Below, one piece after another: positions 3,474 through 24,363 of a DNA stretch of 64,000 nt. The stretch is from Escherichia coli (GTDB taxonomy: Bacteria; Pseudomonadota; Gammaproteobacteria; Enterobacterales; Enterobacteriaceae). Position 1 is the stretch's first letter; every line of letters starts with the position of its first letter. Position numbers and translations under genes: made by a program. A model generated the notes under the pieces. The model saw only the letters and a program-made list of their open reading frames with translations, was not told the origin of the DNA and made no database searches. The stretch lies in the NCBI RefSeq assembly GCF_003334335.1, contig NZ_QOWQ01000016.1. One strand, given 5' to 3'.

Positions 3474-3487
3474 TTGATAACGATCAA
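3474..3487. promoter_or_regulatory. FNR box (TTGATaacgATCAA) upstream of narG
   Basis: Perfect TTGAT-N4-ATCAA palindrome about 90 bp upstream of the narG start codon; narG is a classic FNR-activated promoter. Confidence 0.7.
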
Positions 3488-3897: not shown

Positions 3898-5289
3898 TTA
3901 TTTTTTAGAATGCCGACCATATACCGCCCAGGTAATCACTACGCAGGCGATATAGAAAATCAAAAATACCTTCATTGCGCCGACTGGCGAACCCGTTAAT
4001 GCCAGCGAGCTACCAAACGCTTTCGGGATAAAGAAGCCACCAATCGCGCCAATCGCAGAGATGAAACCCAGCGCCGCCGCCGTGTCGGTTGCCGCTTCAC
4101 GCATCGCACGTTCGTCAGAACCCCCTTCTGCTTTCACGCGATCCATTGTCAGTTTACGGAAGATCACTGAAATCATCTGGAAAGTGGAACCACTACCCAG
4201 CCCAGCTGTCAGGAACAGCGCCAGGAAGACCGCGAAGAACGCCATGAAGCTTCCGCCCTGCCCGTCAGTCGGTAAGGTCAGGAACAGCAGGCCGCTGAAA
4301 ATCGCCATCAGAATAAAGTTCACCAGCGTGACACGAGTTCCGCCCAGACGGTCAGATAATGCACCACCTGCAGAACGCGCCAGCGCACCAATAAACGGCC
4401 CGAAGAAAGCGTATTGCAGAATCTGAACATCCGGGAACTGCGTTTTTGACAGCATTGCAAAGCCCGCGGAGAAGCCGATGAAGGAGCCGAAGGTTGCCAG
4501 ATACAGCAGGCTCATAATCCACAGATGACCCCGTTTGAGTACCGGCAACTGCTCCTTGATGGAGGCTTTCGAGGTAGCAAGATCGTTCATGCCAAACCAC
4601 GCCGCAATGGTGAAGATGGCAAGGAACGGCACCCATATCCAGGACGCATTCGCCAGATACAGCTCAGTCCCATCCGGCTGTTTGACGCCCTGGCTACCAA
4701 ATACTGCGAAAATCGACAGTGATACCACCAGCGGAGCAACCAACTGCATGACGCTGACGCCCATGTTTCCCAGACCACCATTCAGACCCAGCGCGCCACC
4801 CTGCTTCTGTTTCGGAAAGAAGAAGCTGATGTTTGCCATACTGGATGCGAAGTTCGCGCCAGCAAAGCCGCATAGCAGAGAGATGATGATGAAGACGCTA
4901 TAAGGCGTGGAGGTATCCTGCACGGCAAAACCCAGCCAGACGCAAGGAATAATCAGAATACCGGTGCTGAACGCCGTCCAGCGACGACCACCGAAGATAG
5001 GAACCATAAAGGAGTATGGAACACGTAATAACGCGCCAGAAACCGAAGGCAGCGCAGTCAACATAAATAGCTGATCGGTCGTAAAATTAAAGCCGACTTT
5101 CGGTAGGTTCACCGCAACAGCGCTGAACAACATCCATACGCAAAACGCCAGCAGCAGACAGGGAACGGAAATCCACAGGTTGCGGCTGGCAATACGTTGA
5201 CCGCGTTGTTGCCAGAACGCAGGATCTTCCGGTCGCCAATCTGTAATGACAGCTCCAGTAGCCCTTTCGGGGGCGGATGAGTGACTCAT
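3898..5289 (-). CDS. narK: Nitrate/nitrite transporter NarK (MFS)
   Basis: ORF 3898..5295 translation (MSMSHSSAPERATGAVITDWRPEDPAFW...) recognised as NarK; start placed at the second Met to give 463 aa; adjacent to narG and narXL. Confidence 0.9.
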   Translation of the reverse strand: MSHSSAPERATGAVITDWRPEDPAFWQQRGQRIASRNLWISVPCLLLAFCVWMLFSAVAVNLPKVGFNFTTDQLFMLTALPSVSGALLRVPYSFMVPIFGGRRWTAFSTGILIIPCVWLGFAVQDTSTPYSVFIIISLLCGFAGANFASSMANISFFFPKQKQGGALGLNGGLGNMGVSVMQLVAPLVVSLSIFAVFGSQGVKQPDGTELYLANASWIWVPFLAIFTIAAWFGMNDLATSKASIKEQLPVLKRGHLWIMSLLYLATFGSFIGFSAGFAMLSKTQFPDVQILQYAFFGPFIGALARSAGGALSDRLGGTRVTLVNFILMAIFSGLLFLTLPTDGQGGSFMAFFAVFLALFLTAGLGSGSTFQMISVIFRKLTMDRVKAEGGSDERAMREAATDTAAALGFISAIGAIGGFFIPKAFGSSLALTGSPVGAMKVFLIFYIACVVITWAVYGRHSKK

Positions 5290-5396
5290 AGACACCTCTG
5301 ATACTCGTTTCGATGTCTGCCACCTTAGTGTCTGTAGCTAAAGGCAATTTGATGTAAATCAAACGATAAGATAACTTTATCTATCATTGATATTTA

Positions 5397-5410
5397 TCAT
5401 TACCCATAGT
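5397..5410. promoter_or_regulatory. FNR-like site TTGATatttATCAT in the narK-narX divergent region
   Basis: One mismatch to TTGAT-N4-ATCAA, about 110 bp upstream of the narK start; TACCCAT heptamer immediately adjacent (5411-5417). Confidence 0.5.
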
Positions 5411-5627
5411 GAGTACAGTGACTTCATAAAAATTATGAGATTTTTCACGGTGCTGTAAAATCCCTACCCTTACCGATGTAAAGCGACTAACCACACGGCA
5501 AATAAGGAGTAACTCTTTCCGGGTATGGGTATACTTCAGCCAATAGCCGAGAATACTGCCATTCCAGAATGTATCGTCACATTCATTAAGGTTATTGCTC
5601 ATTTAAAGCCTGAAGGAAGAGGTTTAC

Positions 5628-7424
5628 ATGCTTAAACGTTGTCTCTCTCCGCTCACCCTGGTTAATCAGGTTGCGCTTATTGTGTTGCTTTCTACTGCTA
5701 TTGGACTGGCAGGGATGGCGGTTTCTGGCTGGCTGGTGCAAGGCGTTCAGGGCAGCGCCCATGCGATCAACAAAGCGGGATCGCTGCGCATGCAAAGTTA
5801 CCGTCTGTTGGCGGCAGTGCCATTAAGCGAGAAAGACAAGCCCTTAATTAAAGAGATGGAACAAACGGCATTTAGCGCCGAGTTGACTCGAGCAGCAGAA
5901 CGAGACGGACAACTGGCGCAATTACAGGGTTTACAAGATTACTGGCGTAATGAACTGATCCCTGCGCTGATGCGTGCACAAAACCGAGAAACGGTGTCAG
6001 CGGATGTCAGCCAGTTTGTTGCCGGGCTTGATCAACTGGTATCTGGTTTTGACCGCACCACGGAAATGCGCATCGAGACAGTGGTACTGGTCCATCGGGT
6101 AATGGCGGTATTTATGGCACTTTTACTGGTGTTCACTATTATCTGGTTGCGGGCGCGACTGCTACAACCGTGGCGGCAACTGCTGGCAATGGCGAGTGCC
6201 GTCAGTCATCGCGATTTTACCCAACGCGCAAACATCAGCGGGCGCAACGAAATGGCGATGCTTGGAACTGCGTTGAACAATATGTCTGCAGAACTGGCCG
6301 AAAGTTATGCCGTACTTGAGCAGCGGGTTCAGGAGAAAACCGCCGGGCTGGAGCATAAAAATCAGATCCTCTCTTTTTTATGGCAGGCTAACCGCCGTTT
6401 GCATTCCCGCGCCCCGCTGTGTGAACGCCTGTCACCTGTACTCAACGGCTTACAGAATTTAACCCTGCTACGTGATATCGAATTGCGGGTGTATGACACT
6501 GATGATGAAGAGAATCATCAGGAGTTTACCTGCCAGCCAGATATGACTTGTGATGATAAAGGCTGCCAGCTCTGCCCGCGCGGCGTATTACCCGTTGGTG
6601 ATCGCGGCACGACCCTGAAGTGGCGGCTGGCTGACTCTCATACGCAGTACGGTATTTTGCTGGCGACCCTGCCGCAGGGGCGTCATCTTAGCCATGATCA
6701 ACAACAACTGGTGGATACCCTGGTTGAACAACTCACCGCCACGCTGGCGCTGGATCGCCATCAGGAACGTCAGCAACAGTTGATCGTGATGGAAGAGCGT
6801 GCCACCATTGCGCGCGAACTGCATGATTCTATTGCCCAATCTCTCTCTTGCATGAAGATGCAGGTGAGTTGTTTACAGATGCAGGGCGATGCGCTGCCAG
6901 AAAGCAGCCGCGAACTGTTAAGTCAGATCCGTAACGAACTGAATGCATCCTGGGCGCAGTTGCGTGAATTGCTCACCACATTCCGCTTGCAGCTCACCGA
7001 GCCTGGATTACGTCCGGCGCTGGAGGCGAGTTGCGAAGAGTACAGCGCCAAATTTGGCTTCCCGGTGAAGCTGGATTATCAATTGCCGCCTCGCCTGGTG
7101 CCTTCGCATCAGGCAATCCACTTGTTGCAAATTGCCCGTGAGGCATTAAGTAACGCCCTCAAACATTCGCAAGCGAGTGAAGTCGTGGTGACGGTGGCGC
7201 AAAACGATAATCAGGTCAAACTGACCGTCCAGGATAACGGCTGCGGCGTGCCTGAAAATGCCATCCGCAGCAATCACTACGGCATGATAATAATGCGCGA
7301 TCGTGCGCAAAGTTTACGAGGCGATTGCCGCGTCCGCCGTCGTGAATCAGGTGGCACCGAAGTGGTGGTCACCTTTATTCCCGAAAAAACTTTCACAGAC
7401 GTCCAAGGAGATACCCATGAGTAA
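5628..7424 (+). CDS. narX: Nitrate/nitrite sensor histidine kinase NarX
   Basis: 598-aa ORF with N-terminal TM region and C-terminal histidine kinase region ([11 protein letters not shown]... H-box); stop overlaps narL start (ATGAGTAA). Confidence 0.92.
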
Positions 7425-24247: not shown

Positions 24248-24363
24248 GTCGTTGTCTGCGGCATTTTTGCCGAGTGCCGTGTATAATAGGCAAAGTTATT
24301 TCCATTTCTGCAATCTGTTAGCAATAACAGGTTGATTATTAAGATATTAAGGTGATTTAAATC

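Follow-up and report, generated by a model that had tools for sequence, protein, structure and literature searches.

Does the presence of one identical 14-bp FNR-like sequence in two promoters of unrelated genes call for a special explanation, or is it what FNR operators can be expected to produce? An exact search of the window (the whole 64,000-nucleotide, or 64-kb, stretch of E. coli DNA analysed here) found TTGATATTTATCAT twice on the plus strand, at 5387-5400 and 51652-51665, and nowhere else. The original prediction, which had reported an exact 14-mer at two positions, was right about the number of copies and about the second position, but had placed the first 10 bp away, at 5397-5410, an interval that takes in the final four bases of the narK copy and the NarL heptamer TACCCAT. 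Each copy lies between genes, one in the narK-narX divergent region and the other upstream of hlyE, as had been stated, and comparison with annotated E. coli genomes confirmed the gene identities (Table 1). The gene order in the window is narG/narK on the minus strand and narX on the plus strand, followed at a distance by umuDC on the minus strand and hlyE on the plus strand; the two copies are therefore oppositely oriented with respect to their target genes, narK on minus and hlyE on plus. Our preferred reading, to which we give a probability of about 0.85, is that the 14-mers are independent FNR operators in unrelated DNA, the hlyE copy being a class I site at -61.5 and the narK copy a weaker second site at -79.5. 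The identity of the two sites reflects no more than motif constraint and chance.

Table 1. Features of the narG-narK-narX and umuD-hlyE regions, numbered from the first base of the window
Feature	Position	Strand	Details
narG FNR box, perfect	3474-3487	-	TTGATAACGATCAA; narG sense TTGATCGTTATCAA; known narG -41.5 site
narK CDS, nitrate/nitrite antiporter	3898-5289	-	Transcription start inferred at ~5314
Primary narK FNR box, perfect consensus	5349-5362	-	TTGATGTAAATCAA; narK sense TTGATTTACATCAA; class II, -41.5
Copy 1 of the 14-mer	5387-5400	-	narK sense ATGATAAATATCAA; 9/10 FNR consensus; centre 5393.5
NarL-type heptamers (presumed), inverted pair	5401-5415	+ and -	TACCCAT, 5401-5407 (+); TACTCAC, 5409-5415 (-); adjoins copy 1
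narX CDS, divergent from narK	5628-7424	+	Identified by annotated-genome comparison
umuD	51000-51419	-	Identified by annotated-genome comparison
Copy 2 of the 14-mer	51652-51665	+	hlyE FNR/CRP site; centre 51658.5 = -61.5
hlyE core promoter	51685-51714	+	-35 TTGACG, 51685-51690; -10 TATGAAT, 51708-51714; start 51720
hlyE (clyA/sheA) CDS, 303 aa	51792-52703	+	Pfam PF06109

FNR is an oxygen-sensing regulator, and the two copies match nine of the ten fixed positions of its consensus, TTGAT-N4-ATCAA. Table S6 of Myers et al. 2013 (PMC3688515) has 63 predicted FNR sites that are bound in ChIP, and from these a symmetrised weight matrix was derived, on which TTGATATTTATCAT scores 13.87 bits, outscoring 16 of the 63 bound sites. 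The score of TTGATATTTATCAT is equalled or exceeded at only five positions in the window: the narG box at 3474, the narK box at 5349, the two copies themselves, and 24352. The last of these, the FNR/CRP-like GTGATTTAAATCAT at 24352-24365, overlaps the translation-start signals of ychF, its Shine-Dalgarno sequence and ATG, and was set aside as a chance match. TTGATATTTATCAT is missing from Table S6, in which the lowest PatSer score is 12.17, and its own PatSer score, estimated by additivity, is about 11.9, just below that value. The estimate starts from the 14.9 of TTGATATTTATCAA and subtracts a penalty of 3.0 for the final T; the penalty was taken from the rows for TTGATGTACATCAT/G and TTGATTTAAATCAA/C and checked on TTGATATTAATCAT (12.49) versus TTGATTAATATCAA (15.49). 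The positions of the copies are those of operators: the hlyE copy is centred at -61.5, and the narK copy, at -79.5, stands above a box at -41.5 in an arrangement compatible with tandem FNR binding.

At hlyE, the FNR interpretation is fully documented. The promoter is class I, and FNR and CRP alike recognise the sequence from -69 to -54, TTTGATATTTATCATA (Lithgow et al. 2007, PMC2156107). Because the published elements of this promoter, the -35 hexamer TTGACG, the heptameric -10 element TATGAAT and an ATG at +73 (PMC2156107), map exactly onto the window, +1 falls at 51720 and the centre of the 14-mer at -61.5, as published. Copy 2 is thus the same site as the FNR/CRP site described in earlier work (Green & Baldwin 1997; Westermark 2000; Wyborn 2004; Lithgow 2007), from which it shows no difference, the allele in the window being the standard one of E. 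coli. H-NS silences the promoter, and SlyA relieves this silencing (PMC2156107). The mechanism is established: FNR during anaerobiosis, or CRP during glucose starvation, binds at -61.5 and activates through a class I contact, and does so only once H-NS silencing has been lifted, for example by SlyA.

The bases next to the shared 14-mer bear on the use of the sites by CRP. Scored against the CRP core TGTGA-N6-TCACA, the hlyE 16-mer TTTGATATTTATCATA matches at eight of ten positions and the corresponding narK 16-mer, ATTGATATTTATCATT, at six of ten, and the hlyE 16-mer is experimentally a CRP target (PMC2156107). Since the bases flanking the shared 14-mer differ, the two copies need not be equivalent for CRP; judged from these bases, dual FNR/CRP use would be expected at hlyE and not necessarily at narK.

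FNR activates narK from a class II promoter, at which ChIP shows a peak (PMC3688515; PMC1802558). The expectation that both 14-mers are FNR-type operators in FNR-controlled promoters was borne out, the hlyE copy being the published site. The main narK FNR site, however, is not the shared 14-mer but the perfect box at -41.5, which the original prediction had overlooked; the narK copy is a secondary site. Myers et al. place the narX/narK box at 1277107 and -41.5 with a score of 17.06, the second-highest in Table S6 (PMC3688515), where the coordinate is the first base of each 14-mer, as we verified from the narK and narG start codons. Lying 38 bp upstream of that box, centre to centre, the narK copy is centred at -79.5; upstream of both start codons, it is separated from the ATG of narK by 104 bp and from that of narX by about 235 bp.

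Class II activation of narK from -41.5 together with NarL is established. The heptamers that adjoin the narK copy are presumed to be NarL sites from their resemblance to the NarL heptamer consensus, TACYYMT, on which Li, Kustu and Stewart reportedly worked in 1994. FNR sites at both -41.5 and -79.5 are presumably recorded for narK in EcoCyc/RegulonDB, and synthetic promoters with tandem FNR sites are said to have been studied by Barnard, Green and Busby in 2003. In a literature search for TTGATATTTATCAT and its reverse complement that covered papers other than the primary narK promoter papers, the string was found in the hlyE paper only. Natural promoters with two FNR sites include yfiD, ompW and cydA (Myers Table S6), and narK resembles them in having an upstream FNR-like box in addition to the -41.5 box. 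It differs from them in its tandem spacing (38 bp vs 45-53 bp), in the weaker match of its upstream site (9/10), and in the NarL heptamers that this site abuts. The perfect box at -41.5 is the anaerobic switch of narK, whereas -79.5 would most likely be a lower-affinity site for a second FNR dimer, of the tandem type and with a modest modulating effect on the promoter; FNR bound there may also interact with NarL on the adjoining heptamers.

FNR occupancy in ChIP data had been proposed as the check on both copies, and by this criterion the prediction holds only conditionally: there is a wild-type peak at narX/narK, whereas at hlyE an FNR peak and anaerobic induction appear only in a delta-hns delta-stpA strain, the wild type being without a peak (PMC3688515), and hlyE is not among the 63 FNR ChIP-chip targets of Grainger et al. 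2007 (PMC1802558). The wild-type ChIP-seq peak at narX/narK is centred at 1277080-1277082. The upstream site, with its centre at 1277075.5, is 4.5-6.5 bp away from this, and the primary site, with its centre at 1277113.5, is 31.5-33.5 bp away. Across the 63 motif-containing ChIP-seq peaks, the peak-to-motif distance has a median of 23.5 bp and is at least 33 bp in 44%, and the ChIP-chip centre at narK is 1277131 (Grainger et al., PMC1802558). With the sites 38 bp apart and a median offset of 23.5 bp, the narK peak is not assignable to -79.5 or to -41.5. The ChIP-seq summit was therefore rejected as an arbiter between the two narK boxes, its offsets being within the peak-to-motif scatter of the dataset, and as a test of the narK copy ChIP proved uninformative because of the perfect box beside it. 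Identity of the core site does not predict occupancy, since the hlyE copy is silenced by H-NS and the narK copy lies in a strongly FNR-bound region.

The exactness of the match had been singled out as worth noting, and this part of the original prediction did not hold up. The expected number of occurrences of TTGATATTTATCAT itself in the window is 0.00, but the pair was chosen only after it had been seen. Counted in direct and inverted orientation, maximal exact repeats of at least 14 bp form 47 pairs in the window, of which 33 are no longer than 14 bp, vs 17.3 +/- 4.0 such pairs in first-order Markov simulations of the window; with 47 such pairs present, an exact 14-bp duplicate in 64 kb is commonplace. 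Among the 63 ChIP-bound FNR sites, six of the 1953 possible pairs are identical 14-mers when reverse complements are counted, and the weight-matrix model gives a probability of about 2.7e-3 that a pair of FNR sites is identical. FNR-like sites number in the hundreds genome-wide, which makes identical pairs an expected outcome. The six include three between unrelated promoters: the narK -41.5 box is identical to the nirB site, the narG box to the ydhY site (Myers Table S6 rows 1278982 and 1752702), and the pdhR site to the ycgF site. These are likewise exact 14-bp identities between independent FNR operators, although they involve above-threshold, mostly perfect or near-perfect consensus sites, whereas the narK(-79.5)/hlyE pair has a non-consensus final base and a lower score. 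Exact identity of the pair follows from nine of the 14 bases being fixed by the motif, from a shared mismatch that is tolerated, and from the 4-bp spacer being A/T-rich, as it is in many FNR sites. That one 64-kb window should hold two identical FNR sites is mildly coincidental and calls for no special cause; the non-random part of the pair is its match to the FNR consensus in anaerobically regulated promoters, not the identity itself.

Shared ancestry of the copies, by duplication, gene conversion or a mobile element, would also yield 14 exactly identical base pairs on the same strand of the window. We consider it exceedingly improbable. The flanks diverge abruptly at both ends (CTATCA|TTGATATTTATCAT|TTACCC at narK and CATTGT|TTGATATTTATCAT|ATTAAT at hlyE), identity stopping at exactly 14 bp, and the promoters around the two copies are unalignable. 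This abrupt divergence, together with the opposite orientation relative to the target genes, leaves no sign of common ancestry. Neither copy is flanked by a repeat or mobile element in the window, the window has a further 46 exact repeats 14 bp or longer, and the narK and hlyE sites differ in phylogenetic distribution. A dispersed repeat or duplicated DNA was rejected as a source on the same pattern, the similarity being confined to the 14-bp core of one repeat among 47.

The standing of the narK copy as an operator can be judged from its conservation. We fetched 80 loci encoding NarK relatives and compared the upstream regions of orthologues with at least 83% identity. All of the enterobacterial narK orthologues examined, from Escherichia, Citrobacter, Enterobacter, Klebsiella/Raoultella, Kluyvera, Kosakonia, Cedecea and others, have a perfect TTGAT-N4-ATCAA box, TTGATTTAYATCAA or another, at the equivalent of -41.5, and the NarL heptamer pair is kept across genera in the same way. 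The narK 14-mer was present only in E. coli and E. albertii among these orthologues and was absent from those of the other genera, including Citrobacter, Enterobacter and the Klebsiella group.

These comparisons bear directly on a competing view, that the narK copy is a functionless FNR-like product of A/T-rich drift beside the NarL heptamers and that the hlyE copy alone works. In other genera, ATGA(Y) next to the NarL heptamer is the sole part of the site that is kept, and is followed by a run of T; the right half-site is not retained outside Escherichia. Even with a NarK that is 99% identical, Escherichia sp. MOD1-EC7003 has ATAATAAATATTCA in place of the site: three substitutions have destroyed it, leaving four consensus mismatches that include the critical G, while the -41.5 box and the NarL heptamers are intact. 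The placing of the narK 14-mer under the Myers et al. PatSer cut-off agrees with drift too. Against this, the 14-mer outscores a quarter of the sites bound in vivo, it also occurs in E. albertii, and it is intact in 5397 of the 5416 E. coli genomes that have the region (99.6%), despite SNPs only 4 and 23 bp away; the 5397 comprise 4385 genomes exact for the 30-mer 5379-5408 and 1012 that differ at 5404 alone. The fall of the ChIP-seq summit on the narK copy also speaks against drift, if weakly. On balance we regard a functionless narK copy as rather unlikely, and favour a weak second FNR operator. The loss of the 14-mer in a close Escherichia lineage with a NarK 99% identical indicates weak selective constraint, and the pattern as a whole suggests that an ancient primary site has been joined by an accessory one that is young or under weak constraint. 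The upstream site, restricted as it is to one lineage, is on a small scale a case of an operator turning over alongside a primary site that is deeply conserved.

A stronger claim can be built on the fixation of the narK copy across E. coli and on the identity of its 14-bp core with that of the dual-specificity hlyE site, namely that -79.5 is an Escherichia-specific addition at which a second FNR dimer, or CRP, acts in interplay with NarL. If it were true, the narK/narXL region of E. coli would have a response to nitrate and oxygen (or carbon) that other enterobacteria do not have. We hold this to be unlikely.

Outside the 14-mer, position 5404 is polymorphic: of 5426 complete E. coli genomes, 1012, strain 131 among them, have TATCCAT in place of TACCCAT. 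This polymorphism is common, and it falls in a heptamer presumed to bind a regulator. The block at 5436-5449, TGAGATTTTTCACG (TGTGGTTTTTCACG in most other genera), is a strongly conserved part of the narK-narX intergenic region in Enterobacteriaceae and could be a NarL/NarP-type element or a narX promoter element.

The divergent arrangement of the region raises the question of whether the copy serves narXL instead, FNR bound there repressing or tuning narX rather than activating narK. The narK-narX intergenic region has only two FNR-like boxes, of which the 14-mer is the one nearer narX; the 14-mer is oriented towards narX as the hlyE copy is towards hlyE; and in vitro FNR is reported to be a repressor of narX (Takahashi et al. 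1994, cited in PMC1805755). However, the 14-mer is about 235 bp from the narX ATG. To repress, a regulator must as a rule overlap the core promoter, and a consensus scan of the plus strand gave no sigma-70-like narX promoter overlapping the 14-mer. The consensus promoter scan returned a minus-strand TTTACA-16-CATAAT at 5459-5432 only, which is not conserved in other genera. A role confined to narXL strikes us as quite doubtful, and the copy is better read as a second narK site.

The hlyE site has a distribution of its own. Of the 4265 E. coli genomes with the promoter segment, 4256 have the same 30-mer around the site. Outside E. coli the genomic context of hlyE differs, and no FNR-like box with up to two mismatches was found within 260 bp upstream of hlyE in Salmonella enterica, S. 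salamae or Rahnella. Upstream homology extends only about 70 bp from the hlyE ATG, and positional conservation is therefore unscorable in Salmonella and Rahnella. In Trabulsiella guamensis, TTGATATTTGTCAT lies 110 bp upstream of hlyE within ATTGATTGATATTTGTCAT and is one base from the E. coli 14-mer.

The hlyE promoter segment 51619-51698 is missing or truncated in approximately 1160 of 5426 complete E. coli genomes. This loss is consistent with the clyA deletions known in extraintestinal (B2) strains (PMC4164713). In a clinical E. coli, JNEC-KY203, IS1 has inserted exactly where the hlyE FNR/CRP site has its left edge (~51651) and cuts the upstream DNA off from the site and the promoter. Just upstream of umuD, and 190 bp from the hlyE FNR/CRP site, the window has the palindrome TACTGTTTTTATATACAGTA at 51440-51459, which is the classical SOS box of umuDC, the site for LexA.

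The pair is thus real, ordinary and already known in kind, with nothing new in it, and the FNR reading that is fully documented for hlyE is plausible but secondary for narK. The case illustrates that reading a sequence by itself can detect real FNR operators, and also the limits of doing so, the dominant narK site having been missed and the exact match over-read. Among the exact repeats in the window are two perfect palindromes, AAAATCCACGCAATTGCGTGGATTTT at 25512-25549, just after ychF, and GGCCCGACATGTCGGGCC at 39592-39613, which are probably terminator hairpins or regulator sites.
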